Of a DNA stretch of 37,272 nt, positions 12,507 through 32,903 are shown one piece after another. Numbering within the stretch: the stretch's first letter is position 1; each line of letters opens with the position of its first letter. The stretch is from Candidatus Woesearchaeota archaeon. GTDB lineage: Archaea > Nanobdellota > Nanobdellia > SCGC-AAA011-G17 > GW2011-AR18. The stretch spans positions 12,320 to 49,591 of the forward strand of contig CAYXPX010000001.1 of assembly GCA_964467335.1 (NCBI GenBank), written 5' to 3'. The notes under the pieces were generated by a model. That model was not told the DNA's origin. It worked only from the letters and a program-made list of their open reading frames with translations, and ran no database searches. Made by a program: the position numbers and the translations under genes.

Positions 12507-13274
12507 CTAAATTGCTACAAGGCCAGCATAACTTTTAAGCCTTGGAACATTAAGGCCGGCTTCAGGATTAGTTTCGTTCCTTATATTGGGCCCTAAGATA
12601 ACCCCTTCAGCTATGTTAGATGCAACTAAACCATCTGCAGTATTTAGGACTGGATCAAAAAGAACTAGGGGGTATCTTTCAGACATTGAATCACAATTTC
12701 TTCCCATTATATCACTAAAATTTCTAACTCGCTCAGCCAAAGAATATCTGTCGCCGTTTACAACCACTGCATCAGCTCTTCTCATGCCTTCACGAACATC
12801 ACATTCAATTCTTGAGCCGCTGACAGGAGTGTATCCATGAGGATGGACGCCTCCTAAAATAATAACGCTTGGATATTCTCTTCTGAAATCAAAATATGCA
12901 CCAGTATCAAAATCAGGCCCTTGAGTATAAACCCCTGCAACATAATCAAAGTAAAAAAAATCTAAATCAAATCTTTTGACAAGTTCCAGGGATCTTCGCA
13001 TATTATTTGGAAAAACACCGGCACCAATCTTAATACCATTGCCTGAATATTTATTTCTAACAGCATCCATAGCATTGGCAACCCTTGCTGCAGGCGCATT
13101 TTTGCAGTAATTTGCTAAAAGTATTGCATCACAGCCGGCATCAACAAAAAGCTCAGCCTCAGACATTGCTCTTCTTGTTGCATGATAATAATCAATGCCG
13201 CCAAGGGTTATCATTCCGATAATGGCTCTATCTCTTCTTGAAATTCTTGAAAATCTTTGCCTTGCTTTTAACAT
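12507..13274 (-). CDS. TIM-barrel protein, BtpA/SgcQ-like (tentative)
   Basis: 255 aa. AIIGMITLGG...AELFVDAGCDAILLANY...ADAVVVNGD...ADGLVASNIAEGVILG loosely follows the BtpA-family layout. The gene appears less AT-rich than its neighbours. Confidence 0.3.
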   Translation of the reverse strand: MLKARQRFSRISRRDRAIIGMITLGGIDYYHATRRAMSEAELFVDAGCDAILLANYCKNAPAARVANAMDAVRNKYSGNGIKIGAGVFPNNMRRSLELVKRFDLDFFYFDYVAGVYTQGPDFDTGAYFDFRREYPSVIILGGVHPHGYTPVSGSRIECDVREGMRRADAVVVNGDRYSLAERVRNFSDIMGRNCDSMSERYPLVLFDPVLNTADGLVASNIAEGVILGPNIRNETNPEAGLNVPRLKSYAGLVAI

Positions 13275-13313
13275 AAATTAACAAATACCAGAATAAATTT
13301 AAATTTATCTAAT

Positions 13314-15488
13314 TTATTTTACTCCTTTTCTCTGCCTTATTTGCTGCACAACCTTCTGCTGCAATTCAATTGGCATCTTCTGGTATTCCTGGTCTGCAAC
13401 AAAGAAAGTCCCTCTTCCCTCAGTGGCGCTCCTCAATTCAGAGCTTAATCCAAACATCTCTCCGACAGGAAGTTTTGCCTTAACAACAACATAATTTCCG
13501 TCCTCCTTCATGTCAATGAGCTGTCCCCTCTTGTTTGCAATAAGTTTTGAAATTGCTCCCATGTGGTCCATAAGCCCCTCAATCTGCAGGACCTGGACAG
13601 GCTCAAATATAACAGCAGCAGCCTGCGTCATTGCCTCTCTTATGGCGTCCCTTATTGCAGGATAAACCTGCGCTGGCCCCCTGTGTATGCTGTCCTCATG
13701 AAGCTTGCAGTCATGCAGTTTAACAAGAATTTTAGCGCACGGTTCTCTTGCAAGAGGTCCGCCGTTCATCACCTGCTCAAAGCCGTCAAGCACAAGCTCA
13801 ATAACCTCTCCAAGCTGGACAATGCCCCTTGTAGCATCAACAAAAGCATTGCTGTTGTAAAAATGCCTGAAATTATGCGCTTCCTTTGTTTCAACGCCTG
13901 CCTCTACAAGCGCCTTTATTATGCTGTCATCTTTCTTTTTTATTCTTCCGCCATTTATTCTTCCCTCTTTTATAGCAGCATATATTGGATCTGGGAGCGG
14001 CTCAACAGTCAGGTAAAATTTATTGTGTTTGTTGGGCGTTTTTCCCTCAACTTCAATGCTCTTTTTGGAAACAGTTTCACGGTAAACAACAAGCGGCTGG
14101 CTTGATTTTATCTGCACGCCCTTCTCGCTTATTATCCTGTTTTCAATAATTTCAAGATGCAGTTCCCCCATTCCGCTCATTAAACATTCTCCAGTCTGCT
14201 CGTCAATCTGTATTTTTATTGAAGGATCTTCTTTTGCTGCAGCTTTTAAGACCTCAATTACTTTTGCAAGATCCTGCGGCTTTGTTGGTTCAATCGCCTT
14301 TGTGATTACAGGCTCAAAAATATGCCTCAGCTCTTCAAAAGGCTGTTCAGGTTCAAGTGTTATGGTTTCTCCTGCCTCTGCTTTAATACCTGCAAGTGCA
14401 AGAACATTGCCTGCAACAACATTCTCCATTATCTGCGTCTTGACGCCGTAATACATAAATACCTGCTGCAGTCTTGTTCTTAACTTTGCATTATTAAGAT
14501 AAATCTCAATGCCTGATTCAACAGTTCCTGAAAAAAGCCTGCCTGCAGCAATCTCTCTTCCTGTTCTCGGATCAATCATAATTCTTGTAACGCAAAAAGC
14601 AACTTTGCCGTTTTTATCGCAGTTGATTAAATTTTTTCCCAGTTCACTCTCAATATCACCGTGCCATATCTTGGGAATTCTGTATTTTTGGGCAACTAGT
14701 GGATCTGGAAGATGCTTGATTGCCATGTCAAGAATTACTTCATAAAGAGGTGCATTCTCCCATACCCATTTCTTCCTCTCCTCTTCAGGCATTTCATAGA
14801 TTTTTAGTATGTCTTTGAATGTAATGCCCTTTTTCTGCATAAATGAATAAGAGAGCGCCCAGTTCTCCCTTGCACTGCCGAATGCAACGCTTCCCTCTTG
14901 TATGCCAACCTTCCACTTTTCTTTGTAATCAGGTTCTGCAATCTGTTCAACAAGCCTGTTAAACTCTATTATTATTTCAGTAAATCTTTTCTGGATCTGC
15001 TCAGGAGTATACTGCATCTCTTTTATCAGCCTGTCAACCTTGTTCAAAAACAAAACAGGTTTTACTCTTTCTCTCAATGCCTGTTTTAACACAGTCTCCG
15101 TCTGTGGCATTATGCCCTCTGAAGCGCATACTAAGACAATGGTGCCGTCAATAGCCCTCATGGCTCTTGTGACATTCCCGCCAAAATCAACATGACCGGG
15201 AGTGTCAATAAGATTGATTAAATATTCTTCGCCACCATATTTATGAATCATGGAAACATTTGCTGCATCAACAGTCATTAATCTCTCCTGCTCGTCAGTA
15301 TGCTGCCATGTTGCCATGCCTGCATCAAGATCGCCTGCAGATTTTGTGCTCATCAAGCCCGCTGCTGCCAAAAGATTGTCAGTCATTGCCGTTTTTCCAT
15401 GGTGTATGTGGGCACTGGTGCATATATTTCTGATAAATTCAGGCCTGTTCATTGCCTTGCCAAACATTTTTACTGGATCATCTGCCAT
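13314..15488 (-). CDS. fusA: translation elongation factor 2 (aEF-2)
   Basis: AHIHHGKT P-loop, LIDTPGHVDFGGNVTRAMRAIDG, NKVDRLI, and the diphthamide-region HEDSIHRGPAQ. The start is placed at ATG 15488, 22 nt downstream of TTTATATA; the ORF track starts at 15500. Confidence 0.92.
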   Translation of the reverse strand: MADDPVKMFGKAMNRPEFIRNICTSAHIHHGKTAMTDNLLAAAGLMSTKSAGDLDAGMATWQHTDEQERLMTVDAANVSMIHKYGGEEYLINLIDTPGHVDFGGNVTRAMRAIDGTIVLVCASEGIMPQTETVLKQALRERVKPVLFLNKVDRLIKEMQYTPEQIQKRFTEIIIEFNRLVEQIAEPDYKEKWKVGIQEGSVAFGSARENWALSYSFMQKKGITFKDILKIYEMPEEERKKWVWENAPLYEVILDMAIKHLPDPLVAQKYRIPKIWHGDIESELGKNLINCDKNGKVAFCVTRIMIDPRTGREIAAGRLFSGTVESGIEIYLNNAKLRTRLQQVFMYYGVKTQIMENVVAGNVLALAGIKAEAGETITLEPEQPFEELRHIFEPVITKAIEPTKPQDLAKVIEVLKAAAKEDPSIKIQIDEQTGECLMSGMGELHLEIIENRIISEKGVQIKSSQPLVVYRETVSKKSIEVEGKTPNKHNKFYLTVEPLPDPIYAAIKEGRINGGRIKKKDDSIIKALVEAGVETKEAHNFRHFYNSNAFVDATRGIVQLGEVIELVLDGFEQVMNGGPLAREPCAKILVKLHDCKLHEDSIHRGPAQVYPAIRDAIREAMTQAAAVIFEPVQVLQIEGLMDHMGAISKLIANKRGQLIDMKEDGNYVVVKAKLPVGEMFGLSSELRSATEGRGTFFVADQEYQKMPIELQQKVVQQIRQRKGVK

Positions 15489-19237: not shown

Positions 19238-19840
19238 TTACCTGCTTGAGGCAGCCTGTCTCTCAAGTTCAAGTTTTTTTGCTATTGCTTGGCTTCCTGC
19301 CTGGTCACCTCTGTAAGCAGCTAGAATTTCATCAGCAAGAGCCTGTGCAAGAGTCTTCTTCTTGCCAAAACTTTTGCTGTATGTCCCCTGAGTAAACTGC
19401 CTTAATGCAATGTCAACTCTTCTTTGCGGTGCGCAGTCAACAGCCTGCGGATATCTTGCTCCGCCGTATTCAATGGTTGTAATCTCCTCCCTTGGAGCTG
19501 CATTTTCCAGGGCTTTTACAAAAACTGCAACAGGATTTTGTTTTATATTTTGTTCAATGATTTCAAAGCACTTTCTTACAGCATTATAGACGTTCATGCT
19601 CTTGCCTGTCATATGGCTGCTCGTCCTGAAATGCTTTTTTCCCTTGTGTCCGGGCACCATAAGTTTGTTCATAAGCCTCTCAACAATATTTAGTTTGCTC
19701 TTTGCAAACCTCTGATTTGCATTCCTTCCAAAGCTTCTTGGAACTAGGACAGGATTAAGACCGATATATTTTCTAAGTCCAGGATCCTCTACAAAAACAT
19801 CTTTTATATCCCACATTCCAAATATTTTGAATTCAGCCAT
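19238..19840 (-). CDS. rps7: 30S ribosomal protein S7 (uS7)
   Basis: LVPRSFGRNANQRFAKSKLNIVERLMNKLM, and ENAAPREEITTIEYGGARYPQAVDCAPQRRVDIALR. The start is placed at ATG 19840 (MAEFKIF); the ORF track starts at TTG 19852. Confidence 0.92.
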   Translation of the reverse strand: MAEFKIFGMWDIKDVFVEDPGLRKYIGLNPVLVPRSFGRNANQRFAKSKLNIVERLMNKLMVPGHKGKKHFRTSSHMTGKSMNVYNAVRKCFEIIEQNIKQNPVAVFVKALENAAPREEITTIEYGGARYPQAVDCAPQRRVDIALRQFTQGTYSKSFGKKKTLAQALADEILAAYRGDQAGSQAIAKKLELERQAASSR

Positions 19841-19863
19841 AATCCAGGGCAAATGTCTAAAAT

Positions 19864-20631
19864 TTATAAGCTTTCTGTTTCAAAATCCAGCTTTATCTCA
19901 GTGCTGTAATATGTAGCGCCGCCTGTAAATCTTATCGTGCATATGAATAATCTTGTTTTTTCAGGAACACCGTTGATTTCAAGGTAATATAATGCAGTAT
20001 TATTGGGAAAGTAATTTCCCTTAAGCACAACCTTGTTTTCATCACCCTCGAAATAGTCCTTCATGGAAATATTGTTGTAAACATCCTTTTCATTTTTCTC
20101 ATCATAATAAATAACATTAGAATCTATCCGCCTGCATGTAAAGGAAGAAGACAAACTGCTTAATGGGAGCTCGCCGATGTTTTCCATCTGTGATTTTAGT
20201 ATGCTGCTTCCTGTTACAATAAAATTATCCTCGTTTAAAGTGCATCTTCCCTCGCAGCTGAATTCAGACAGCGTTAGAACGCCAGCGCAGGTTCTTGGGC
20301 AGTCTAAAGGACAGACCGTCATATGGGTTTCATCATTGCATCTCTCTGAAAAATCGCAAAAGCCGTCGCCGCAGCATGTTTCAAGTCTTTTATACTCGCA
20401 TTTTCCAGTTGCCTCATTAAAAACATCATCTGTGCAATCATTGTTGTCATCACACGAGGGAATCTCAAAAGCCTCTTCGTCGTCAGCATTCTCTTTAAGT
20501 GAATCATCAGAAACATTTTCAGTGGCATTGCCAACATCAGCATCTGATATGCTGATTTCTTCAGAAGGACTTGCACAGGCTGTAAAAAAAATTGCAAGGC
20601 ATAAAAATAAATAAAATAAAACTTTTGGCAT
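19864..20631 (-). CDS. Cys-rich secreted lipoprotein-like protein
   Basis: Signal peptide with a lipobox-like FTAC, then an acidic linker. A Cys module follows (CDDNNDCTDD...CEY...CCGDGFCDFSERCNDETHMTVCPLDCPRTC), then a beta-rich C-terminal domain. The ATG shares one base with the rps12 stop (TAATG). Confidence 0.6.
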   Translation of the reverse strand: MPKVLFYLFLCLAIFFTACASPSEEISISDADVGNATENVSDDSLKENADDEEAFEIPSCDDNNDCTDDVFNEATGKCEYKRLETCCGDGFCDFSERCNDETHMTVCPLDCPRTCAGVLTLSEFSCEGRCTLNEDNFIVTGSSILKSQMENIGELPLSSLSSSFTCRRIDSNVIYYDEKNEKDVYNNISMKDYFEGDENKVVLKGNYFPNNTALYYLEINGVPEKTRLFICTIRFTGGATYYSTEIKLDFETESL

Positions 20632-21068
20632 TATCTCCTGCCCTTCTCAATCTTGCCGCTAAGCAGGGCATTCAGGCTCTGGTCATTTACCTTTATAACC
20701 TGCCACCTTACACAGGGAATATCACCTTTTGCCCTTCCCATCTTGCCGCCGATGCACTCAATAATAACCTCGTCATGCTCATTAATAAATCTCTGTGCAT
20801 TGTCTCCTGGAATAAATGCAGTAATCTGTTTTCCGTTTTTCAATAGCTGAACAACACACGCCTTTCTCATGGCACTGTTTGGCTGCTTTGCCTCAAGCTG
20901 CCTTTTCTCAAGAACTATTCCCTTTGCCTGATGTGCTCCCTCAAGAGGGTCAGCCTTCGCCTTAAGATTCAGTGCTCTTTTAACAAACCATTTATTGCTC
21001 CATCTGGCCTTTTTCCTTCTGTTTTTAAGTCTCTTTCCTGTCATTAAGCCATTGGACTTGTTTCCCAT
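20631..21068 (-). CDS. rps12: 30S ribosomal protein S12 (uS12)
   Basis: [46 protein letters not shown] and [22 protein letters not shown]. Confidence 0.93.
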
Positions 21069-21086: not shown

Positions 21087-21106
21087 GGTGTTTAATAAAT
21101 CTTGTT
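21087..21106 (-). promoter_or_regulatory. BRE/TATA-like promoter element upstream of rps12 (identical 20-mer)
   Basis: Same 20 nt as at 3423-3442, lying 18 nt upstream of the rps12 ATG. Confidence 0.5.
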
Positions 21107-21108
21107 GT

Positions 21109-23565
21109 TTAATCTCTGTATCTAAGTCTTACAGCAACTGTATATCCTGTACCGCCGCCACCGCCGTCTCCGCCTCCATCACCACTATGACCTCCTCCGC
21201 TATCTCCGCCAGAATATCCTCCCTCTCCTCCGCTATAACCTCCGCCTCCAAATCCTTCACCAGAATATCCTCCGCTCCCTTCGCCCCCGCCACTAAAGCG
21301 GTAACTTCCCTCAGAACCTCCTCCGCTAAAGTAAGATTCATATCCTTCAGGAGGGCTAAAACCTTCAGGTACTGAAAATCCCTCTCCATATGGTCCGCCA
21401 ACATATCCCCCGCTAGTGTAGGCTTCATAAGCTCCGCTGTCTATCTCTCCCCCATGCTCAAAGTAAGCCTCATAACGCCCCTCCCTATCCTCTTCACTTA
21501 AAGAAAATACCTCGCCAAATATTCTCTGTCTGTCCTCTTCAGAATATGAACTTCTGAATTCTTCTCTATGGCTGTCAAATCTCCCAAGCATCCCGCTCAC
21601 AGAACTTTCATAGGTTCCAGCGCGCTCTGGATGTGCAGTCAAATAATCTTTTTCAGGACCGTCAGGCAATGAATCAACTCCCCCGGCAAGATAAGCCTCG
21701 TAAGCCTCTCTAACACTCTCAACATGTGCAGCAACATCAGGAACAACAAAGAACTCAGGCCTCCTGTTGAGTACATCAGGATTATTCTCGACAAAATAAG
21801 CAGCCTCCTTTCCAAATCCAAACTCAGCATGCTCAATCAAAAACTTCTCATATTTTTTAGTCATCTCAGGATTAATATTCTCAAGTCTCTTTGCCTCTAC
21901 GCTGAGGTCATCTGCCAGATTTGGGTTATCATCAAGATAAGAAGCATAATCTTTTTGATAAGTTACTAAATAAGTTTCACGGAAGTTCTTAAAATCTTCA
22001 GGATTTTCAGAATCTCTCATTGCATCTATAAATTCATGAGGAATATTCTCAACAGGAGAAAATGTTAATCCTGTGTCTATGAATCTCTCAAAATTATAAT
22101 AGTCAATAGCATCAGGAACATCATTGCCGTTTGCATCATCATCATCCTCGTTCAATTCTCCGTCGCCGTCAATGTCATCGTCATCATAATCATAAATTCC
22201 ATCATCATCAGTATCAATAAAATCACCATAGTTTTCAGCAACTTCATCCCTGTGTTCATAGATATCATCTAAATTGCCTGAAAATGTCAGGCCATCTTCA
22301 ACTCCATCTCCATTTATGTCATCATCCTCTCCATTCAGAATTCCATCGCCATCAAAATCACCGCCGGCAAAATCATCAAACTCCTCAATATCATCTGTGC
22401 CGCTTCCGTCAGCATCGCTATCTTCCCAGTCAACTATGCCATCATCATCAAAGTCATTGTCAGGCAGCGTAACAGCAAAAATCTCAAGTCTCTGCCCGTC
22501 ATATTCCTCCTGGCTTATTAATCCATCGCCGTCGCTGTCAGTAAATCCTAAATCTGTTAATTCAGTCTGTCTTTCTTCACTGTTTATATCAGCCTGAATT
22601 GGGGCAGGAAATATGCTGGGCCTCTGTTCATCATATTCATCAGCATCAATAAGACCATCGCCGTTTGTATCAGTAAATCCTATTTCCCTTAGTTGGTTTT
22701 GACGGTCAACACTATCTATTATTTCTTCTATATCATCGTCAAAAAGTCCATCGCCATTCCAGTCATTCTGGATATCGCTTTCGCTCATAGGCTGACCATT
22801 CCAGTCATACAATCCGTCGCCGTCAAGATCAAAGTCATCCTCATTAACAACTCCATCACCATTAAAGTCAGCATCCTCCATAGTCATTCTGCCGTCTCCA
22901 TTCAGGTCATCATTGTCTCCATCCCCGTCAGGGTCAGTATCAATATCATCAGGAATCCCATCACCATCAAAATCTCCAGGACCAAGGTTTGTCTCAAAAT
23001 CATCTGAAAAGTCTCCTGTATTTTGTTCCAGTTCACTAAGGTGCTGCTCCATAACATCCAAATGGCTAAGCAGTAGGGTATTGCCGCTTTCCTCAGCAGC
23101 GCTTCTCATTTGTTCTAAAATTGCTCCAAGTTCATCAATCTCAACATTAAGCTCAAGCAGGTAATTATCAGCAGTTTCCTCAACACCCTCTGAAAGCTGG
23201 TCATCCAGCTCATCAACATAGAATGAAATTGTGTTGCTTGTATATAATCTTCTGATTCTTAATGCAGCGTCCATCACAGCAGGATCTCTTGATTCAATTG
23301 CAATATTAACCAGGGCATTAACATCATCACTAAGTTTATTATCAGATTCCCTGACACCAGAAAATGATTCCTTGAGGTTATCTCTTTCAATAGCACTCAA
23401 TGCAGGAGCAACATTATCTGCTCTTAATCCTGACAATGAAGAAACACTCTGTGCTTCCTCCTGGGTTTCAGCCTCTTCACTAACCTGCTGCTGCTGACAG
23501 GAAGCCAAAATTAAAATCAAAACTAGAAAAAATACCCAAAATACGCCATATCTTTTTTTAAACAT
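21109..23565 (-). CDS. large hyper-acidic secreted lipoprotein-like protein with DxDxDG calcium-binding-type repeats and a Gly/Ser/Tyr-rich tail
   Basis: The start is placed at ATG 23565 ([23 protein letters not shown], with lipobox-like LASC), with a TATA box 23-24 nt upstream. Many DFDGDG, DPDGDG, NGDG and DIDGDG loops are present. There are two FTD(T/S)(N/D)GDGLI..EEYD units. The C-terminus is made of GGYSGG-type repeats. Confidence 0.65.
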
Positions 23566-23588
23566 AGAGTATTTCAAGAAAGCAAATA

Positions 23589-23597
23589 GTATAAAAA
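23589..23597 (-). promoter_or_regulatory. TATA box (TTTTTATAC) for the acidic lipoprotein-like gene
   Basis: 23-24 nt separate it from ATG 23565. This implies the gene is its own transcription unit inside the superoperon. Confidence 0.4.
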
Positions 23598-23633
23598 CTT
23601 TGTGAAAATACGTTTATAATTATCAAGTAGCAC

Positions 23634-24044
23634 TTAAGCAACAACCACAGTATCAGAAACATCGAAATAATTTTTGATAATTTTATTTATTTTTTTTAAA
23701 TTTTCCCTGTTCCTGCCGAGAATCCTGCCCCTCAAAAAAGAATCGCCGGCACGTATCTTCAAAGTTTTTTCTTCAAGAAAAATTTCATCAGCCTTGATTG
23801 GATATATTAAATTTGCAGCAAACTTGCAGACATCGTCTGAAAATGCCAGAATTTTAACTCTTTTTTTTAGGATATCTGAAATTTTTTTGATATTTGAATT
23901 GTTTTTTCCAATTGCGATTTTCACATTTCCAGTTTCAACAAGAAAAACAAGAACATCACTGTCAAAAAAGCAGTCCTTCAGTTTTGCTCCAGTAAGGCTC
24001 TCAAAAAGATTAATGTATCCTATCGACTCTGTTGTAAGTTTCAT
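23634..24044 (-). CDS. nusA: archaeal NusA-like protein (two KH domains)
   Basis: 136 aa. YINLFESLTGAKLKDC and GRILGRNRENLKKINKIIKNYF. It sits in the conserved position after rpl30e. Confidence 0.8.
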   Translation of the reverse strand: MKLTTESIGYINLFESLTGAKLKDCFFDSDVLVFLVETGNVKIAIGKNNSNIKKISDILKKRVKILAFSDDVCKFAANLIYPIKADEIFLEEKTLKIRAGDSFLRGRILGRNRENLKKINKIIKNYFDVSDTVVVA

Positions 24045-24286
24045 TATTCAATGCCGATTACTGAAATAGAAAATGGTTTTTTGCATAAAACCCCAAAATC
24101 CTTGCTGTTCTCGCCTGCAAATTCTGCCTCAACATTGAACTTTTTGCATAAATCAGAAATATGTTCTTTCATGTGTGAATTTGAGGCAACGTAAACCTTC
24201 TTTATTTTCTGATTTTTTATTTTCTTGACTGTTCTCTCAAGCCCGAATACAAGTTTTTTATTTTTAATGTCATTTTCAAGGCTCAT
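24044..24286 (-). CDS. rpl30e: 50S ribosomal protein L30e (short)
   Basis: 80 aa with an L7Ae/L30e-like layout (KLVFGLERTVKKIKNQKIKKVYVASN...LCKKPFSISVIGI). It sits in the conserved position between rpoA'' and nusA and overlaps both neighbours by a few nt. Confidence 0.7.
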   Translation of the reverse strand: MSLENDIKNKKLVFGLERTVKKIKNQKIKKVYVASNSHMKEHISDLCKKFNVEAEFAGENSKDFGVLCKKPFSISVIGIE

Positions 24287-25401
24287 TTCTGCACCTTCAT
24301 TTTTGCTGTAAGCCCCGGAAGTCCTGTGCCAAGGGGAACAGGCTGGTTTATTATAACATTTTCAACAACGCTTCTCAGGTTGTCAACCTCTCCTATAAGG
24401 CTTGCATTCACAATGTGTTTTATCGGAGTTTCAAAGCTTGCTCTTGCAATCACGCTTTCCTTCTCGCCTGTAATGCCTGTTCTTGTAACTCCCTTTATCT
24501 CTCCGCCTCTTGTCATCACATCAGCAAGAAGCATTATGTGCCTTATGTCAACGTCAATGCCCTGGTCTTTTAATTCTTTGGAAGATTCCTCTATGACTGA
24601 TTCTCTTGCAGCCTCAATTCCAAGAACCTCTCCTATTTCAAAAATATTGTTGGTTGTTATTCTGGAAGTATCAGCCTCCTCAAGAGCAAGGGCGTCCTCT
24701 AAATTGCTGCCTGCACAGTGTATGACATAGCTGCCGTCATCTTCTTTTACAGGCAGAACATGCGTAATTCCCTTTAGGCCCATTATGTGTGTATTCTTTG
24801 CCTTTTCCTTAATTTTGTAAATTTCTGAGATTGGCAGCTCTTTCTCTTTTGGCTTTATAATAAATCCGTTGTCAAGATCCTTGATCTCAACGCCCTTCAT
24901 TGCCTCTTTGAGTGTATCGTAAATAAACTTTTGTTTAAGTTCAAGCTCTCTTGTCTTTTTTCTGTCAAGTATAATCTCTACGCTGCCCTTTGCAACGTTT
25001 ATGGAAATTTCCTGTGCGATGTCGCTGAGTTTTGTCTCTTTTATTTTCATGGCAACAAGCCTTACATCTTCGGTTGTTTTTGAAAATTTTGGTTTTATCG
25101 GTATCTTCATTTTTGGGGTGCTCGGCCTTTTTCTTGCATCAAAAATTTCTATGAGTCTTGGCAGTCCTACAGTGACCTGCATCTCTGCAACGCCTGCAAA
25201 ATGGAATACATTAAGTGTCAGCTGAGTGGCAGGCTCTCCAAAACTTTCAGCAGTGACAATTCCAATGGATTCCCCGGGATCAATCTTTGCATTCTCATAT
25301 TTTTCATCAACTCTCTTTTCAATTTCCTTTTTGTCCCTGTCAGAGATATTGTATTTCTTGGCATACTTTTCAATTTTTTCAGATAGATGGAATGGCAGCA
25401 T
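24283..25401 (-). CDS. rpoA2: DNA-directed RNA polymerase subunit A''
   Basis: Trigger-loop region GESIGIVTAESFGEPATQLTLNVFHFAGVAEMQVTVGLPRLIEIFDARK. The C-terminus ends with INQPVPLGTG. Confidence 0.92.
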   Translation of the reverse strand: MLPFHLSEKIEKYAKKYNISDRDKKEIEKRVDEKYENAKIDPGESIGIVTAESFGEPATQLTLNVFHFAGVAEMQVTVGLPRLIEIFDARKRPSTPKMKIPIKPKFSKTTEDVRLVAMKIKETKLSDIAQEISINVAKGSVEIILDRKKTRELELKQKFIYDTLKEAMKGVEIKDLDNGFIIKPKEKELPISEIYKIKEKAKNTHIMGLKGITHVLPVKEDDGSYVIHCAGSNLEDALALEEADTSRITTNNIFEIGEVLGIEAARESVIEESSKELKDQGIDVDIRHIMLLADVMTRGGEIKGVTRTGITGEKESVIARASFETPIKHIVNASLIGEVDNLRSVVENVIINQPVPLGTGLPGLTAKMKVQK

Positions 25402-25402
25402 C

Positions 25403-27673
25403 TTAGCTTAGCACCTCTCTTATTATTCTTGCAACATTAATCTTCCCGCCCTCTGTTTTTGAAACATCAAGGCCATCCTCGCCGTATAAAAATTGGATGA
25501 TATTCTGCTCAGCATCTCTCACAGTAGAATCATATTCCACTTTTATGTCCTGCAGTGCGCTTGACAGTCTCCTGTAAAGATATCCTGATTTTGGAGTTCT
25601 TAAGGCAGTGTCCATAAGTGAGTCTCTTCCTGTCATTGCGTGCATAAAATATTCCTCAGGTGAAAGCCCCTCTTTATATCCCCTTTTTATAAAACCCTTT
25701 GCCCTTGGGCTCAGGTCATTTTTTTGAAATATGCACAGTGTCCTGCCCCTGTATCCTATGTCAATCCTTTTTCCCCTTAATGCCTGTAAGCCGACGCATG
25801 CAGCCATCATGGAAAGATTCATGTTGCTCCCCTTTGCTCCTGAATTTGCCATGAGAATTGTGGAATTTTCCTCAAGGTCTGCTTCAGCAATAATTTCTCC
25901 AGTACGCTGCCTTGCCTTGTTCAGGACTTCCATGATTTTAATTTCAAGCGTATCCATCGTGCTTAGCCCCGGAAGGGCATCAAGTTGTTTTGATTTGTAT
26001 TGTTCAATAAGCTGGCTTACTCTTTTTTCAGCATTGTATATTGTCTCTTTGCATTTGTCAGATACTTCTTTCGGAAGGTCTGTATCGCTTATGGAAGTTG
26101 TAAATCCATGCCTGAGCAGCACTCCTATTCCAAGTCTGAAAATCTTTCCAAGTATATCAAGACCGACATCAGCACCGTACTTTGCATACACAGCTCTTAT
26201 CAAGTCTCCCTTGTCTTTTCCAATTGTTGCCTTGTCAATCACTCCTTCAGTTAAAAATCCATTCTTTACAACAACAGCCTCCTTTGATTTTGAATGGCCT
26301 ATGAAACTAAAGTCATCAGGCAGCAAAGCGCTGAAAATCTCCCTTCCGTCAGCTGTTTTTTTGAACTTTTCAAATCTTTCAGGCCTGAAAACTCCAACGC
26401 TGTGAAGAAGCTGTATCGCATCAGCCCTGTCCATCTTAATGTCCTTTGTTAGAATGTAATTGCCAGTAACAGCATCGTCGCTGCATCCAACAACATGGGT
26501 TTCATCAGTTATTTTTTTCTTTTTTCCGTCAGGCCTTATAACATAGTTGCTGCCTGGATATTTTTTTGGGCCGTTTTCCACAAATTTTTTTAGTCTCTTA
26601 AGATTCCATTCAGTAACCCTTTCAGGTGTAGTAAGCTCCATTGCAACAACAAGCGGGATGCCGACCTCATTAAGTTCTATTTTTGAGTCAGGACTTATGA
26701 CAGTTCTTGCAGCGTAATTAACTCTTTTGCCGGCAAGGTTGTGCCTGAATCTTCCCTCCTTGCTTTTTATCCTTTCAGTAAGTGTTCTTAATGCCTGCCC
26801 GCTCCTGTGCCTTGCAGGAGGAATTTGGCTTACCTCATTGTCAAAATAAGTTGTAATATGATACTGCAGTAAATCCCAAAGATCTTCTATAATAATCTCA
26901 GGTGCTCCTGCATTTATGTTTTCAAAAAGTCTCTGGTTTATTCTTACAATATCTCCAAGCTTGTGTGTCAGATCATCTTCACTCCTTTCGCCTGTTTCCA
27001 GCGTGATGCTCGGTCTTATTGTAACAGGAGGCACTGGAAGTATTGTTAAAACACCCCACTCAGGTCTTGCATATTCAGGATTCAGTCCGAGGAACGCAAT
27101 ATCACTATCGCTTACTCTCTCAAGTCTTGTCCTTATATCAATAAGGTTCAATCTCTTGTCGCCTTCAAGAAATGTAGTCGGCCTCTCAAGTTTTATATTT
27201 TCCTGCTTTGCACTGCAGTGCTGGCACTTTTTTATATTCTTAAGTGAATTTCTAATGCTTTTGGCCTGCTTTTGTGTAGATACTTCAACCTCAGGATTTT
27301 CTCCTGCATTTTCCTCTTCTACAGTTAGTCTTGCCTTGCTGTCAGCTAGAAGCTTTCCGCATTCTCTGCATGTGCATCTTAAAACTCCGAGTATTATATC
27401 AGCGTATTTAATATGTATCACAGGTCTTGCCAGATCAAAATATCCAAAATGCCCCATGCAGTCCCTCAAATTTCCTCCGCATGTTTTGCATCTTAAGCCG
27501 GGATCAATGACTCCAAGTCTCACATCCATCAGCCCGCCGTCAACAGGATAGCCCTCTCTGTCATAAAGTTCAGGTGTAACTATTTTCGCAACAGCCATCT
27601 TCTTTATCATTGTAGGTGAAAACATCCCGAAAATTATGCTGGTTATTTTTTTGTATACGTATGTTTCTGCCAT
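25403..27673 (-). CDS. rpoA1: DNA-directed RNA polymerase subunit A' (atypically short; active-site segment not found)
   Basis: Zn-ribbon/clamp motifs (CKTCGGNLRDCMGHFGY), LPVPPVTIRPS, EDDLTHKL, GKRVNYAARTVISPD, and funnel/cleft motifs (SGAKGS, MTGRDSLMDTALRTPKSGYLYRRL). The start is placed at ATG 27673. The NADFDGDEMN region is absent (see findings). Confidence 0.85.
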   Translation of the reverse strand: MAETYVYKKITSIIFGMFSPTMIKKMAVAKIVTPELYDREGYPVDGGLMDVRLGVIDPGLRCKTCGGNLRDCMGHFGYFDLARPVIHIKYADIILGVLRCTCRECGKLLADSKARLTVEEENAGENPEVEVSTQKQAKSIRNSLKNIKKCQHCSAKQENIKLERPTTFLEGDKRLNLIDIRTRLERVSDSDIAFLGLNPEYARPEWGVLTILPVPPVTIRPSITLETGERSEDDLTHKLGDIVRINQRLFENINAGAPEIIIEDLWDLLQYHITTYFDNEVSQIPPARHRSGQALRTLTERIKSKEGRFRHNLAGKRVNYAARTVISPDSKIELNEVGIPLVVAMELTTPERVTEWNLKRLKKFVENGPKKYPGSNYVIRPDGKKKKITDETHVVGCSDDAVTGNYILTKDIKMDRADAIQLLHSVGVFRPERFEKFKKTADGREIFSALLPDDFSFIGHSKSKEAVVVKNGFLTEGVIDKATIGKDKGDLIRAVYAKYGADVGLDILGKIFRLGIGVLLRHGFTTSISDTDLPKEVSDKCKETIYNAEKRVSQLIEQYKSKQLDALPGLSTMDTLEIKIMEVLNKARQRTGEIIAEADLEENSTILMANSGAKGSNMNLSMMAACVGLQALRGKRIDIGYRGRTLCIFQKNDLSPRAKGFIKRGYKEGLSPEEYFMHAMTGRDSLMDTALRTPKSGYLYRRLSSALQDIKVEYDSTVRDAEQNIIQFLYGEDGLDVSKTEGGKINVARIIREVLS

Positions 27674-27675
27674 TT

Positions 27676-28104
27676 TCAAACTCTTGCATAACCTCCGGCT
27701 GTATTTGGTCTGATTGTAACGATCTTGTGTGCTTCTGTGCCGCTGAATATTACTCTGCCTGAATTAAATAAAACAGATTCGATTCCTGCCAGATCTTCAA
27801 TAAGGCTCTGAGATAGAGAACTTAAAATTCTGTTGGCTAGTTCATCCTCAGTTGGAGTTTTTCTTTTGATTTTATCAGCAAATTTTAAAAAAGAAAAAAC
27901 ATCATCATGAGCTTCAAAAAGCCTTTCAGTTCCATAGATATAAGGCACAGAAAATGTAATGGTTTCCTCTCCGCGTGAAAGAGCAAGACCGTCAGCAGGA
28001 GGAAAAATAATAACCCCATAACTTGTTTCATGGCTGTCTTTCTCATCTAAGACAATATATGGAAATCCTCCAGCATCTCTTAGTTTATATTTAGGTAAAT
28101 TCAT
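27676..28104 (-). CDS. hypothetical 142-aa protein embedded in the RNA polymerase operon
   Basis: The ATG at 28104 lies 1 nt after the rpoB' stop and 8 nt downstream of AAGGAG. Its TGA stop lies 2 nt before the rpoA' ATG. No family recognised. The ORF-track start at 28146 would overlap rpoB'. Confidence 0.55.
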   Translation of the reverse strand: MNLPKYKLRDAGGFPYIVLDEKDSHETSYGVIIFPPADGLALSRGEETITFSVPYIYGTERLFEAHDDVFSFLKFADKIKRKTPTEDELANRILSSLSQSLIEDLAGIESVLFNSGRVIFSGTEAHKIVTIRPNTAGGYARV

Positions 28105-28105
28105 T

Positions 28106-29908
28106 TTAATATCTCCTTCCCAGCACAAGTTTTGGATATAATCCAAGGGCCTTAAGCTCGTCTAGCAGTAGTTTGAATGCATAACTCATCTCAACAGCGC
28201 TTATCTTTGTGTTTCCTCCGCATTTTGTGCAGTGTTCCCTGTCTTTGTATGAATCATAAATTCCAAGAAGGCCGCAGCTTTCGCATACATAAACAAGAGT
28301 TCTGTCAGAGTCAAACCTTTCCTTCAATAATAAGGATGCACCACGCGAAACAAAGCAGTCCTTCTCCATCTCTCCAAGACTTAATCCTCCTCCCTGCGCC
28401 CTTCCCTCTATAGGTTGTCTTGTAAGCAGTTGTATCTTCCCGGTTGCCCTTGCATGCAGTTTATTGGCAACCATATGTTTGAGCCTCAGGTAATACATAT
28501 TCCCAACATAAATCTTTGCCTTTAATTCTCTCCCGTCAATGCCGCTGTAGACAGTCTCAAATCCATTGTCCCTGAATCCAAGTCCAAGCAGCATTTTTCT
28601 TAGCTCACTTTCAGGAACAGAATCAAAAGTTGTTCCGTCAATATATTCCCCGGATAAAGCGCCTGCCTTGCCTGCAATCACTTCTATAAGATGTGATATT
28701 GTCATTCTTGATGGAATTCCGTGCGGGCTGAATATAATATCAGGAGTTATTCCAGAGGCAGTAAAAGGCATGTCAGCAGGATTTACAAGCATGCCAACAA
28801 CTCCCTTTTGTCCGTGGCGCGAAGCAAACTTGTCTCCGATCTCAGGTATTCTCTGCTGCCTGAGTTTAACACGGACAATTCTGTTCCCCTCTTCATTCTC
28901 AGTAATTAAAGTCATGTCAACAATCCCATTTTCTCCATGGGTAAGCGCGACAGAGCTTTCTCTTTTTACATTTGTGGCAACATTAAATTCTTCAAACTCC
29001 CCCAAAAATCTTGGAGGGCTTACCTTTCCGATTAAGACATCATCCTCTTTTACTTTTGAGCTTGTAAAAACAATTCCGTCCTCCTCTAGCATGCGGTAAT
29101 CCTTTTCAGACTTGTAGCCTTTGACATCTTTGTCAGGTATGCATATCTCGTCAACAAGTCCTCCCTGGTATCTTACCTCTTCTGTGTTAAAAGGTTTGAA
29201 GTAAGTTGATCTTCCAAAACCTCTCTGTACACTGCCGAGATTTATTATGATTGCATCCTCCATGTTGTATCCTTCATAGCTCATCAGGGCAATCACAACA
29301 TTCTGTCCTGACGGATGTTTGTCCCAGTTGACAACAGGATGCATAAAAGTGTTTGTAACAGGCCTCTGCGGATAATATAAAACATTTACATCAGTGTCAA
29401 TTCTCATAAGGTAATTTGCTGCATAAACTCCAAGAGCCTGCTTTTGTATTTTGTTCCCTCTTATAAGTCTGGAGCTTCCGCCAAAGTTTGAATAAGGTAT
29501 CAGCGAAGTGCATAGTCCAAGAATGACTATTGGTGATATTTCAAGGTGGGTATGTTCTTTTGTTAATTCTTTTTCATCAAGTGCAATATAGCAGTTCTCC
29601 TCCTCTCCAGCATCAATGTATTCCATAATCCCGTCTTTCACAAGCTTTTCTATCTTAAGCGTGCCGTCCTCTATCCCCTTAATGTGCGCATCAGTCAAAA
29701 GAGGTTTGCTGTTTTCAACAACTATCAAAGGTCTTCTTGCCCTTCCCTTTGTGGTATCAACATAAAATTCATCATACTCCTCATCGTAAAAAAAATTAAC
29801 ATCCTGGTTTAATGAGCCCTTTCTTCTCTCATTCCTCAGCTGTTTGATAAATTCTTTTGAATTTTCTATAGTTCCTATGAATTTTTCATTTAAAAATACG
29901 TCTGTCAT
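28106..29908 (-). CDS. rpoB1: DNA-directed RNA polymerase subunit B' (C-terminal half of B)
   Basis: GDKFASRHGQKGVVG, DMPFTASGITPDIIFSPHGIPSRMTISHLIE, and the C-terminal Zn ribbon CESCG...CTKCGG. Confidence 0.92.
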   Translation of the reverse strand: MTDVFLNEKFIGTIENSKEFIKQLRNERRKGSLNQDVNFFYDEEYDEFYVDTTKGRARRPLIVVENSKPLLTDAHIKGIEDGTLKIEKLVKDGIMEYIDAGEEENCYIALDEKELTKEHTHLEISPIVILGLCTSLIPYSNFGGSSRLIRGNKIQKQALGVYAANYLMRIDTDVNVLYYPQRPVTNTFMHPVVNWDKHPSGQNVVIALMSYEGYNMEDAIIINLGSVQRGFGRSTYFKPFNTEEVRYQGGLVDEICIPDKDVKGYKSEKDYRMLEEDGIVFTSSKVKEDDVLIGKVSPPRFLGEFEEFNVATNVKRESSVALTHGENGIVDMTLITENEEGNRIVRVKLRQQRIPEIGDKFASRHGQKGVVGMLVNPADMPFTASGITPDIIFSPHGIPSRMTISHLIEVIAGKAGALSGEYIDGTTFDSVPESELRKMLLGLGFRDNGFETVYSGIDGRELKAKIYVGNMYYLRLKHMVANKLHARATGKIQLLTRQPIEGRAQGGGLSLGEMEKDCFVSRGASLLLKERFDSDRTLVYVCESCGLLGIYDSYKDREHCTKCGGNTKISAVEMSYAFKLLLDELKALGLYPKLVLGRRY

Positions 29909-29909
29909 T

Positions 29910-32903
29910 TTAAACTTTAGTTTTCACCCCGAGATTATCAAGTGTTTTTTTTACCTTTTCTTCCTGCGAGTCTCCCTTTGATGCAACACAAAGCAGTGCT
30001 ATATTTTTTCTTAAGCCTATTGGTGTTCCCTCAGGAGTCTCAATAGGGCAATTGTGGGTTATAAACCCATTAGCAATTAATGTATGAGTATTTTCTTTTG
30101 TGGTAAGGTCTCTGACGTCATCTATTTCCTGTGCGCTCTTTTGTATAATTCTCTCCCATACTGCCCCAGATTCCCCTAATTTCGAAGATTCCAGCCATTT
30201 AGTATACGATTGCAATAAATTTTGTGTATTTCGGGTTTTCTCATATATTTTTTGGTTAAATAACCACCCATTGATTACCCTATAATTTATTCCAAACCTT
30301 TCTGATATTCTTTTAGGTGTTAACCCATCTGAATATAATTCTTTGACATCATTCTTTAATTTTTTTCTTTGGTTTATCACCATTTCTCTTATTCTCAGCC
30401 ACTCGCCAATATAATTCGAGTTCATTTCCTTTTGTTTGCAGTATCTGTAACCTATAACATTTAGGGTTTTCTTTATATTATTGTAATCATTTGCAAATAT
30501 AATTTTGCATTTAAGCATAATTGCCTTGTCTTTTCTTATATAATCTTCAGCTAGTTCTATATTTTTTATTTTAACACCAAGATACATGAAAAGTTTTTTT
30601 ATATCTTCAGCAAATCTCTGTATATTATTTTTTAACTCTTTTCTCTTATGAAAAATAAAGTTCCCTAAATTTAATTTTTCTCCAGACAATCTTTCATTTC
30701 TTATTGATATCCTTGGCTTGGAACCATCACCGCCAAGCAAAGCAGCTAAAAATTCCCTTTTAACTGATAGGCTAGACTTAAATAACCATTTAGGAACATA
30801 CAACTCAGTGTCTGTTTTTCTGCCAACAGGAGCACCAGCACAAACCATTAAAGAATGTAACGCCCCGCCCTTGCTCAACATAAAAGTTCTATAATTCACC
30901 TCTCTATCAGACAATTTTATTTTAGTATCCTTTTGTATTATTTTGGACGGCTCAAACCCCAATAATCTTATATCATTAGCCACAGCCTCAGCATCATTCC
31001 TGCTGCCGCAATAAAATTCCAGGTTATACTTTCCACAATGCCCATCTGAAAATAAGTGGCCCATTAACCTTGCAATTATCTCAATTTTATAGTTGTTTGT
31101 AGTTAAGGGTAGCAATTCATTTGAATGCAGTTCTTTTATATCATGTTTAAATCTTTTTTGGTAATTTTTTTCAATATCGCTAACACTAACTATCATTTCT
31201 CCTAAATTTTCATTTGGTAATTCTGGAGTATTAATTTTATCAAGAGTAGGATAAACAGCAACATTATCTCCGACATTAAGTTTAGCAGCATCAATCCAGC
31301 CATGTTTTGTATAAAAAGGATGGTCCTGCGTGGCAAGTATCTCTCTTCCGCTTTCAGAAACCAATTTATAAACAGTTTTGCCCATTAATTTGGGATTTGA
31401 AGTATAATATTTGGATATACTTGATTTTATTAGTGCCTTATCTTTAATATTATATGTCAAAATCTTATGATGATTCCAGCAATTTTGCAGATTTTCTAGA
31501 GTTTTCGTTGAATATCCGTCTGCCAGCAAAACATTTGTATCCTTGCTCAAGCATAATCTTCCCCAATGCGTCGGATGCAGCGCCCTTGCCTCAAAATTTT
31601 CCTGCGTGCTTGTCAGCAGGGAAACAACCCTCTGGAGATGTGAATAAGTTGCAAGTATATTTGTTCTGTCAATATTTTGGCTGACTCCCTTTCTTCCGCC
31701 TGTCCATGTGCCTGTTGCAAGTGAACTCTTTATATTTGATGTAAGAAGCTCATCTCTTATTATTATTTTGATGCTCTGGAATTTTCCTCTCTTTACAAGC
31801 CTCTGGAAGTTATACAGTATATCCTGCACAAGGCTTCTAAGGTTTGTTCTTATAAGGTCCTCAAGTAAATCCCCTGCAAGCTTGAGTCTTTTGTTGGCAT
31901 AATGATCCTTGTCAGGCAGTGGAAGTCCGTCGCTGCTTGCCTGCAGAAATTTTCTTATCATTTTGCATAAGTTATATGCTTTTACAATCCTGTCTTTTGG
32001 CGAAGTTCCAACATGCGGCAAAAGATATCTGTCAAGCTGCTCTTTTGTTCTCTCATATTTTGCTTCCTTTGGCTGTGAAATTCCTGCCCTTTTTGAAAGA
32101 TATTCAAGTGCATCATCCTCTGTCTTTATGCCGGCTGAATCATATAAATTTATAAAAACAGAGTCATAGTTTTTTTCGGGGCAGATCATCTTTACTATCT
32201 CCTGATCCTTGGTCATTCCAAGTGCTTTTAGGATAGGGAAAAGTGGTATTCTCTTAAATCTTGTAAATGTTAAGTAAAAAATTCCATCCTTCATCTGCTC
32301 AATAGTATGGGGTATTCTGTAGCTTCCCATCTCTGAAAAAACCCTTGCAACATACTCGCTTGGTCCTATCTCTTTTTTTTCTATAAAAATGCGGTTTGAT
32401 GCAAGATCTTCAACAGTGACAAGAACTCTCTCATTTCCGTTTATCATAAAATATCCGCCAGGATCATCAGGATCCTCGCCTTTTGAAATAAGTTCCTCTC
32501 TCTTAAGTCCGTGAAGATGGCAGTATTTTGACCTGAGCATTATCGGAAGCTTTCCAATCATTGTAACAAAATTTTCTCTCTGTATGTCATCAACATATGC
32601 GCTGACCTCAAGAAACATCGGAGCAGAGTATGTCAGCATCCTGAGCCTTGCCTCTGATGGAAACACATCTCTTTTGCTGCCGTCAGCTTCAATTATTGTG
32701 GGTTTTTCTATCCATATTTTTTTTAATTTAATAACAAAGCTCTCAACTTCCTGGGGAATAATTGTAGGGGAAATATCTCCGACTTCATCCACAAGAATCT
32801 GAAGTCTTCTGTCAACAAAATCATTAAAGCTTTGTATATTCGCCTCTACAAAAGGATTTTCCTTAAAATATTGTTTGATAAGATTATGATATCCCTTAAC
32901 CAT
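29910..32903 (-). CDS. rpoB2: DNA-directed RNA polymerase subunit B'' (N-terminal half of B) interrupted by an intein
   Basis: 997 aa. Extein motifs GYFMINGNERVLV, HYANKRLKLAGDLL and HPTHWGRL / CPIETPEGTPIGLRKN flank a 501-aa insertion. The extein sums to 496 aa, a normal B'' size. Confidence 0.9.
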   Translation of the reverse strand: MVKGYHNLIKQYFKENPFVEANIQSFNDFVDRRLQILVDEVGDISPTIIPQEVESFVIKLKKIWIEKPTIIEADGSKRDVFPSEARLRMLTYSAPMFLEVSAYVDDIQRENFVTMIGKLPIMLRSKYCHLHGLKREELISKGEDPDDPGGYFMINGNERVLVTVEDLASNRIFIEKKEIGPSEYVARVFSEMGSYRIPHTIEQMKDGIFYLTFTRFKRIPLFPILKALGMTKDQEIVKMICPEKNYDSVFINLYDSAGIKTEDDALEYLSKRAGISQPKEAKYERTKEQLDRYLLPHVGTSPKDRIVKAYNLCKMIRKFLQASSDGLPLPDKDHYANKRLKLAGDLLEDLIRTNLRSLVQDILYNFQRLVKRGKFQSIKIIIRDELLTSNIKSSLATGTWTGGRKGVSQNIDRTNILATYSHLQRVVSLLTSTQENFEARALHPTHWGRLCLSKDTNVLLADGYSTKTLENLQNCWNHHKILTYNIKDKALIKSSISKYYTSNPKLMGKTVYKLVSESGREILATQDHPFYTKHGWIDAAKLNVGDNVAVYPTLDKINTPELPNENLGEMIVSVSDIEKNYQKRFKHDIKELHSNELLPLTTNNYKIEIIARLMGHLFSDGHCGKYNLEFYCGSRNDAEAVANDIRLLGFEPSKIIQKDTKIKLSDREVNYRTFMLSKGGALHSLMVCAGAPVGRKTDTELYVPKWLFKSSLSVKREFLAALLGGDGSKPRISIRNERLSGEKLNLGNFIFHKRKELKNNIQRFAEDIKKLFMYLGVKIKNIELAEDYIRKDKAIMLKCKIIFANDYNNIKKTLNVIGYRYCKQKEMNSNYIGEWLRIREMVINQRKKLKNDVKELYSDGLTPKRISERFGINYRVINGWLFNQKIYEKTRNTQNLLQSYTKWLESSKLGESGAVWERIIQKSAQEIDDVRDLTTKENTHTLIANGFITHNCPIETPEGTPIGLRKNIALLCVASKGDSQEEKVKKTLDNLGVKTKV
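30051..31553 (-). mobile_element. intein with double-motif LAGLIDADG homing endonuclease domain in RpoB''
   Basis: Begins with Cys (CLSKDTNVLLADG) right after HWGRL. Ends with THN followed by the +1 Cys (CPIETPEG). LAGLIDADG-type motifs are LMGHLFSDGH and FLAALLGGDGS. There is an HTH-like segment (LTPKRISERFGINYRVINGWL). Confidence 0.85.

Follow-up and report, generated by a model that had tools for sequence, protein, structure and literature searches.

The prevailing view of DPANN archaea such as the Woesearchaeota is that they live attached to other cells, yet, to our knowledge, almost nothing is known of their surface proteins. Lipobox proteins are reported to be prevalent in DPANN, where the AliA lipidation enzyme family is present and arCOG02177 is stated to occur, with gaps (PMC12462473). 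Calcium sites of the form Dx[DN]xDG bind Ca2+ in a near-identical way in many protein families and show a strong bias towards secreted and surface proteins (PMC3123361). Here, we analysed a stretch of 37,272 nucleotides from a Candidatus Woesearchaeota archaeon (assembly GCA_964467335.1, contig CAYXPX010000001.1, positions 12,320 to 49,591; this whole stretch is hereafter called the window), in which a gene for a hyper-acidic protein, named gene X and its product X below, lies between nusA and rps12. With moderate confidence, we read X as a lipid-anchored calcium-binding surface protein, and it appears best filed as a small, previously undescribed family in which a calcium-loop surface protein is built on new domains. 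The host genome is 0.87 Mb in size and 98.8% complete, and the named genomes closest to it are Candidatus Woesearchaeota/Nanoarchaeota metagenome-assembled genomes, many of them derived from groundwater. Gene X and the parts of its product, numbered by residues of X, are as follows.

21109..23565 (stop codon included), minus strand: gene X, encoding the 818-amino-acid (aa) hyper-acidic lipobox protein P0001; basis: open reading frame (ORF) and translation, ratio of non-synonymous to synonymous substitution (dN/dS), homologues at five syntenic loci.
23497..23565, minus strand: predicted signal peptide and lipobox, residues 1-23, with Cys23; the sole hydrophobic segment of X, lipobox conserved.
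22981..23439, minus strand: N-domain, residues 43-195, a family-defining helical bundle in the AlphaFold2 (AF2) model, with no Pfam family.
22108..22980, minus strand: acidic loop region, residues 196-486, with 15 Dx[DN]x[DN]G loops, 28.5% Asp and a net charge of -100; basis: motif count compared to shuffles.
22471..22713, minus strand: two EF-hand-like helix-loop-helix units, residues 285-365; basis: sub-threshold EF-hand profiles, PDB matches and AF2 helices.
21451..22107, minus strand: C-domain, residues 487-705, a helical domain in which a Y-x-x-x-[NH]-P-type motif occurs three times; kept in all six full-length members of the family and in the fragment P0074.
21112..21450, minus strand: Gly/Tyr/Ser-rich tail, residues 706-818, 40% Gly; identified by composition, a Gly-rich tail being present in all six members.

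Gene X is real and evolves under purifying selection. Its ATG start, which yields the 818-aa product (an alternative TTG at 23577 would yield 822 aa), agrees with the starts of its orthologues. Compared to two orthologues, X as a whole had a dN/dS (Nei-Gojobori) of 0.14-0.16; for the loop region, values of 0.10-0.11 were obtained, and for the Gly-rich tail 0.09-0.17. The protein is composed of 14.9% Asp, 10.8% Glu and 12.6% Gly, so that Asp and Glu make up 26% of its residues, and mature X carries a net charge of about -165. The lipobox-like signal described in the original prediction was confirmed as L-A-S-C at residues 20-23, following a basic n-region and a hydrophobic core; it fits the [LVI][ASTVI][GAS]C form of archaeal lipobox lipoproteins, and Cys23 is the single Cys of X (0.1% Cys). 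A lipobox of the form [LVIF][ASTV][AGS]C was found in six out of six full-length members and in five of the six relatives read that consist of the N-domain only, the exception being P0055, which has a signal peptide without the lipobox Cys.

Residues 196-486 contain 20 overlapping Dx[DN]x[DN]G matches, compared to 1.3 on average in shuffles that preserve the composition, none of which reached 20 (0/5000). With overlaps merged, 15 separate loops remain, most of them at a spacing of 11-13 residues, and the “dozens” of Asp-rich loops claimed earlier were thus an overstatement; 13 loops have a spacing like that of thrombospondin type 3 (TSP3) repeats, while the others form a genus-specific EF-hand-like pair. 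Eight loops fit the longer pattern Dx[DN]x[DN]Gxx[DN]xx[DE] of TSP3-type tandem loops, with 0.16 expected and no shuffle out of 5000 reaching this number. We found 12 of the 15 loops in register in a 36-39% identical homologue from the sister-genus genome G010. The proposal of many Asp-rich loops of calcium-binding type was therefore upheld, and their conserved repeat register speaks against scattered low-complexity matches. Outside the family, the repeat blocks at residues 196-255 and 369-484 align to the repeats of very large proteins (2-7 kaa, for example P0029 with 7284 aa), with up to 39 stretches per protein and whole-protein E values of roughly 1e-63 to 1e-6. Three of the five mid-sized repeat matches scanned (513-1871 aa) bear Big_9, cadherin-like or LamG surface domains.

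The more specific assignment to TSP3 repeats, also made in the original prediction, was not borne out. The TSP_3 profile (PF02412; gathering score 25 bits) gave no match to whole X at E<=0.1 or to the repeat segments alone at E<=10, and a search of PDB sequences with one repeat block (residues 367-496) returned no thrombospondin. Scanning the host genome with PF02412 gave 0 matches, with the control likewise giving 0. The inter-repeat disulfide cysteines that characterise TSP3 are absent from X.

We confirmed the two tandem FTD units reported earlier, which read FTD[TS]xGDGLIxxxEYDxQR at residues 297-315 and 341-359. Their EF-type 12-residue loops start at residues 299 and 343, 44 residues apart, and are canonical at positions 1, 3, 5, 6, 8 and 12. 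In the AF2 model, helices flank both loops (277-295/308-318 and 330-338/352-365; pLDDT, the predicted local distance difference test score, 53-71), which gives the architecture of an EF-hand pair, namely paired 12-residue loops between helices with Gly at position 6 and a hydrophobic residue at position 8. The EF-hand profiles tested (PF13202/PF00036/PF13499) nevertheless stayed below their cut-offs over residues 285-368: EF-hand_5 was a near miss (E 1.9e-5, 24.3 bits vs 25.9 bits), followed by EF-hand_1 (19.3 vs 25.4 bits) and EF-hand_7 (17.5 vs 30 bits). Compared to PDB sequences, nearly all matches of the pair were EF-hand proteins (E 0.02-0.6). The pair is an insertion confined to three close orthologues. 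Overall, the earlier suggestion of EF-hands holds as a resemblance of these two units, whereas their profile scores are sub-threshold and the remaining loops are not covered by it.

The N- and C-domains on either side of the loops fit no curated family and no solved structure, and Pfam and NCBIfam scans of whole X gave no meaningful family. Modelled by AF2 from a 10-sequence alignment, the N-domain is a five-helix up-down bundle (pLDDT 86.7; predicted template modelling score 0.80). It matched no Pfam family, and a Foldseek search against the PDB returned nothing at E<=0.001, the best matches being the periplasmic region of PilJ (E 0.037) and pectin methylesterase inhibitor. Neither was accepted as kin of the N-domain, the likeness being that of a generic bundle and not homology; the designed helical repeat proteins that were the only PDB matches of the N-domain profile were taken as compositional. 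Full-length members conserve the N-domain motif D-P-x-x-x-D...R-[IL]-[RK]-[RK]-[LIV]-Y. The C-domain profile had no match in the PDB. This domain has the conserved motifs E-[FY]-[GS]-F-x-G-K-E and P-E-x-[FY]-V-[IV]-P-[DE]-V as well as three copies of Y-x-x-x-[NH]-P-[DEN] (residues 543, 590 and 641), which may represent an internal helical-hairpin repeat. The tail was disordered in the AF2 model and ends in a short beta-like basic/aromatic segment in three of the four lineages. For full-length X, the AF2 model reached a pLDDT of 45 with repeats and tail disordered; a fold search with it gave only generic helix bundles at E>0.1 and was not used because the model was poor.

Relatives of X were sought in two ways, with a profile in an exhaustive search covering 1.84 billion representative proteins and with the single sequence among 5.8 billion proteins. 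The latter yielded two orthologues, its remaining matches being compositional (insect sarcalumenin). The profile search added the full-length relatives P0028 (714 aa) and P0044 (890 aa), the fragments P0027 and P0074, and short relatives with the N-domain only (about 240-310 aa, with an acidic tail; P0045, P0055, P0062, P0070, P0073, P0077 and P0123). A 608-aa member was found in the sister-genus genome G010. Six full-length members (window, L001, L002, L137/P0028, L139/P0044 and G010) align end to end and have the same module order, which runs from the lipobox signal peptide through the N-domain, the Asp-rich loops and the C-domain to the Gly-rich tail. A profile scan of contigs with the full alignment picked up low-complexity acidic patterns, and nothing was confirmed. 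Among the short relatives, P0055 (240 aa, from a metagenome) carries two dockerin/EF-like DxDxDxxVGLSDFVxF repeats ahead of the N-domain, in place of a lipobox, indicating that the N-domain has been joined with calcium loops in more than one layout.

On our preferred reading as a calcium-binding surface protein, X would be exported by the Sec pathway and anchored to lipid via Cys23 on the outer face of the membrane of this small-genome Woesearchaeote. Outward from the membrane, the predicted layout consists of the N-domain bundle, about 290 residues with the 15 loops, the helical C-domain and the Gly/Tyr/Ser low-complexity tail. The loops could bind 15 or more Ca2+ ions, and Ca2+ binding would turn a disordered polyanion into a compact, rigid spacer, which would present the C-domain and the tail away from the membrane, either to the cell's own envelope or to a partner cell. 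The calcium-dependent surface adhesin or scaffold of the original prediction thus keeps its lipobox export signal and its conserved calcium-type loops; a specific adhesin or scaffold role, which we infer from these features, is considerably less probable than calcium binding at the surface.

Several points weigh against the preferred reading. We know of no demonstration of archaeal lipidation other than in Haloferax. In the full-length AF2 model, the loop region is without structure (disordered, with no ions modelled). No curated calcium-binding family reached its threshold on X, with TSP_3 and dockerin giving no match, and we identified no partner protein or ligand of X, with cohesin and dockerin absent from the host genome. 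The N-domain was found in two of the 27 species genomes of the GTDB family, a distribution too patchy for X to be essential, and lateral transfer instead of inheritance could explain the shared position of the gene that is described below. In addition, acidic regions readily yield Dx[DN]xDG motifs (PMC3123361).

Among the alternatives, the one that survives best is that X is a high-capacity, low-affinity buffer of divalent cations at the cell surface, comparable to calsequestrin or sarcalumenin, which would concentrate Ca2+/Mg2+ close to the membrane or stabilise the envelope with no specific partner. The net charge of about -165, the high share of Asp and Glu and the empty search for partners (cohesin, dockerin) are consistent with it, and so is the fact that acidic stretches of insect sarcalumenins were the sole matches outside the family in the single-sequence search. 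However, these matches reflect composition, with E values of about 1e-6 and 10-35% of the query covered, the loop positions are kept in register, which goes beyond bulk charge, and the N-domain, C-domain and tail are conserved under purifying selection, while a pure ion sponge needs none of them. We thus consider a mere buffer unlikely; if X was only a cation sponge, the result would amount to a modest annotation note.

Alternatively, X could be a surface scavenger of haem or metal, with a C-domain like that of mycobacterial haemophore-related proteins and the acidic region as an accessory. PF16525 (MHB) was weakly matched by five of the six C-domains (best E 0.0012) and TIGR04529 (MTB_hemophore) by three of the six (best E 5.4e-5), a lipid-anchored surface location is predicted for the proteins, and the Y-x-x-x-[NH]-P motif occurs three times in the window protein. 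All these scores nevertheless fell under the cut-offs, with the C-domain of the window reaching 14.0 bits for PF16525 (cut-off 27.4) and 16.4 bits for TIGR04529 (cut-off 32), so that X does not belong to the haemophore families by score. The matches cover around 19 residues of a 77-position model (positions about 43-63) and are explained by the Y-x-x-x-[NH]-P-[DEN] motif, and the C-domain has no PDB match. We regard this function as very unlikely.

A further question is whether the position of gene X tells something about its function. On the minus strand, the gene order is rpoB''/B', rpoA', rpoA'' (24283-25401), L30e (24044-24286), nusA (KH-domain), X, uS12, a 255-aa lipobox ORF and uS7 (19238-19852), and the features at the two junctions are as follows.

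23634..24044, minus strand: archaeal nusA (KH-domain), the upstream neighbour; TIGR01952 at E 5.6e-27 and 94.8 bits, above cut-off.
20631..21068, minus strand: rps12 (uS12), the downstream neighbour; TIGR00982 at E 8e-60 and NF003254, above cut-off.
23590..23602, minus strand: element of gene X resembling a transcription factor B recognition element (BRE) and TATA box, CAAAGTTTTTATA, 28 nt before the ATG; read from sequence, its core being invariant in three orthologous loci.
21091..21103, minus strand: BRE/TATA-like element of rps12, AAGATTTATTAAA, 28 nt before the ATG; read from sequence, invariant in three loci.

The TATA-like boxes within these elements are TTTTTATA at 23597-23590 for gene X and ATTTATTAAA at 21100-21091 for rps12. 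In L137 and L139, a TATA-like box lies at the matching distance before X, and AAGCTTTATAA likewise before rps12; such boxes are found 24-30 nt ahead of the ATGs of X and rps12 in all five syntenic loci. Separate promoters for the two genes, as proposed earlier, are in line with these promoter-like elements and their conservation in orthologous loci. Because of the conserved boxes, X and rps12 look like separate, essentially leaderless transcription units: X appears to have a promoter of its own and a leaderless mRNA, and transcription would restart at rps12 from that gene's own promoter.

The order nusA-X-rps12 is shared by five independent assemblies (window, L001, L002, L137 and L139). L001 (a metagenome scaffold from the ENA) and L002 (GCA_053532135.1) have X in exactly the same slot at 84-85% and 74-76% identity, respectively, and both also follow the window in the rps12-[255/260 aa]-rps7 arrangement after X. 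More distant relatives, P0028 (L137, GCA_053531575.1) and P0044 (L139, an SRR22388321 contig), are also found between nusA and rps12; compared to the window, identities of L137 and L139 are 32-38% for X, 62-63% for NusA and 88% for S12. Their NusA is closer to that of G009 (74-76%) than to that of the window, and in G009 a toxin-antitoxin pair and a small ORF stand in place of X. The G010 homologue of X adjoins aRF1 and ValRS instead of lying at nusA-rps12, and the short N-domain proteins occur in unrelated gene contexts. Divergent from the relocated homologue in G010 is a gene for a 353-aa Cys-rich secreted protein (L006, G010:C1, 3364-4425, minus strand).

Homologues at 32-38% identity in the same slot suggest that the placement is old. 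The original prediction had called gene X inserted at an unexpected place; the placement is indeed unusual compared to model archaea, but “inserted” is misleading, as these homologues share the slot and the junction is loose in Woesearchaeota. Gene X appears to be an old resident of the junction. It was either inherited from a common ancestor and lost in some lineages, or re-acquired repeatedly by transfer between lineages that placed it in this slot. On our reading, nusA-X-rps12 would be an inherited gene order in part of the family.

The survey of the nusA-rps12 junction suggested earlier was carried out in 80 named Woesearchaeota relatives, giving 67 loci with nusA upstream on the same strand, and revealed a junction that is often opened by unrelated genes. 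NusA was encoded within 150 bp of rps12 in 48/67 loci, gaps of 150-3489 bp were present in 19/67, and eight relatives had no nusA within at least 2 kb of rps12. The genes at the junction of these relatives (toxin-antitoxin pairs, a malate dehydrogenase (MDH)-like gene, regulators and opposite-strand genes) have no common theme. At the nusA-rps12 slot, insertions or breaks have thus recurred. Individual gaps held a two-gene pair that is toxin-antitoxin-like by sequence reading only (L041, G009:C5, 2106-2960), a gene of 327 aa whose N-terminus suggests a malate/lactate dehydrogenase, likewise by reading only (L044, G029:C6, 4139-5122), and a 481-aa gene on the opposite strand (L043, G005:C9, 2582-4027).

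A functional position would mean that X is co-regulated with or acts on the transcription/translation machinery, or that it is kept in place for growth-rate-coupled expression. Occupation of the slot in five loci across genus-level divergence argues for this. However, X is predicted to be exported, X and rps12 each have a promoter-like element of their own, the G010 homologue lies beside aRF1/ValRS, most genomes of the family have no X gene, and many unrelated genes fill the junction in relatives. This alternative is highly improbable, and its position gives no reason to assign X a role in transcription or translation.

It is scarcely credible that X belongs to a dockerin-cohesin assembly, in which the duplicated calcium loops would act as dockerin modules plugging into cohesin scaffolds. 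A weak PDB sequence match to 8x39/8x3a (E 0.13), whose deposited name is “Serine protease”, covers duplicated DxDxDG loops, and the dockerin-like DxDxDxxVxxxDF repeats of the N-domain relative P0055 point in the same direction. Against this, PF00404 had no match in X (searched in pieces, E up to 10) or anywhere in the host genome, cohesin (PF00963) is absent from this 98.8%-complete genome while control genomes did respond, and the spacing of 11-13 residues (44 for the EF-hand-like pair) is unlike that of dockerin. The dockerin reading of the original prediction and the cohesin partner search that it proposed thus both came up empty.

Finally, an artefact, be it a chimeric assembly with a break at 21.1 or 23.6 kb or a non-coding low-complexity open frame, can practically be dismissed, since five independent assemblies agree at both junctions, dN/dS of X is 0.14, and the raised local GC content (0.41-0.44 vs about 0.35-0.39) with its strong GC skew is caused by Asp and Gly codons.

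Additional observations were made on the genes around X. The 255-aa lipobox protein between rps12 and rps7 (19864-20631, minus strand), here called Y, is Cys-rich and has homologues in the matching slot in several genera of the family (G004, G016, G022, G009 and G010) and in L139, not in L137. We rejected the idea that X and Y form a unit because each is found alone (the g5 genomes and G009 have Y without X, L137 has X without Y), and their distributions are independent. Within 25403-28146 of the window (minus strand), the rpoA' ORF encodes 758 aa, compared to 847-863 aa in relatives, and an ORF of 142-156 aa (27676-28146) lies between rpoB' and rpoA', with a 143-aa ORF at its counterpart in L001. 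RpoB'' has 997 aa (29910-32903, minus strand), and an intein domain is annotated in its L002 orthologue. Inteins also occur in other housekeeping genes of the lineage, namely in rpoA' in L002 and, together with LAGLIDADG, in aEF-2 in L137 (9561-12145). Just downstream of rps7, the L002 assembly (GCA_053532135.1) has an IS605 OrfB/TnpB-like gene (Cas12f1-like_TNB; 13272-14336, minus strand); the window has no TnpB-like gene there, and a VapBC-like pair and genes without assigned function are found instead.

Taken as a calcium-binding surface protein, X would join a signal for lipid anchoring with a new helical-bundle domain modelled at high confidence, an unusually dense set of conserved calcium-type loops and a new C-terminal domain. 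These features make X a concrete candidate, and one that is easy to express, for tests of calcium-dependent surface architecture and a tractable entry to the surface biology of Woesearchaeota. The locus further indicates that the “universal” archaeal linkage of nusA and rps12 is loose in this phylum and that a non-housekeeping gene can persist in the slot for a long time; a surface-protein gene residing stably inside an RNA polymerase-ribosomal cluster is a curiosity which overturns no expectations. A bolder proposal, which we hold to be quite improbable, is that X is the main calcium-dependent attachment protein of this Woesearchaeota clade, to the envelope or to a host cell, and that its retention in the slot was selected and is not a neutral accident. 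If this was true, retention could have been selected, for example, via growth-coupled high expression or cassette swapping by recombination at the conserved flanks.

Overall, X resembles several known systems in part. With calsequestrin and sarcalumenin, which are high-capacity acidic Ca2+ stores, it has its extreme acidity in common, but this similarity is compositional only and no domain is shared. The short helical Y-L-x-x-H-P-like motif of mycobacterial haemophore-related proteins (PF16525, TIGR04529) recurs in its C-domain, although the matches are sub-threshold and cover only around 19 residues. Compared to EF-hand pairs such as those of calmodulin, polcalcins and the calcium vector protein (1c7v), X has the same loop ligand positions, Gly6, hydrophobic residue 8, Glu12 and predicted flanking helices, whereas its scores lie just under the Pfam cut-offs, 44 residues separate the two loops, an extracellular setting is predicted and the pair is limited to three close orthologues. 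As in archaeal lipobox lipoproteins, which depend on AliA/AliB in Haloferax volcanii (PMC12462473), X has a Sec-type signal peptide ending in [L/V/I][A/S/T/V/I][G/A/S]C, and it may be lipidated in a similar way. Unlike TSP3 repeats (PF02412; the calcium “wire” of PDB 1ux6 as cited in PMC3123361), X is without disulfides and without a PF02412 match, and its setting is that of an archaeal lipoprotein, but it shares the tandem D-x-D-x-D-G-x-x-D-x-x-D loops at a spacing of 11-13, a predicted extracellular location and little predicted regular secondary structure. None of the giant surface proteins of uncultivated prokaryotes (P0029, and P0042 with Big_9, cadherin-like and PG_binding domains) has the N- or C-domain of X, which is far shorter and lipobox-anchored; the DxDxDG(I/V)xN/D repeat module is common to them and X.

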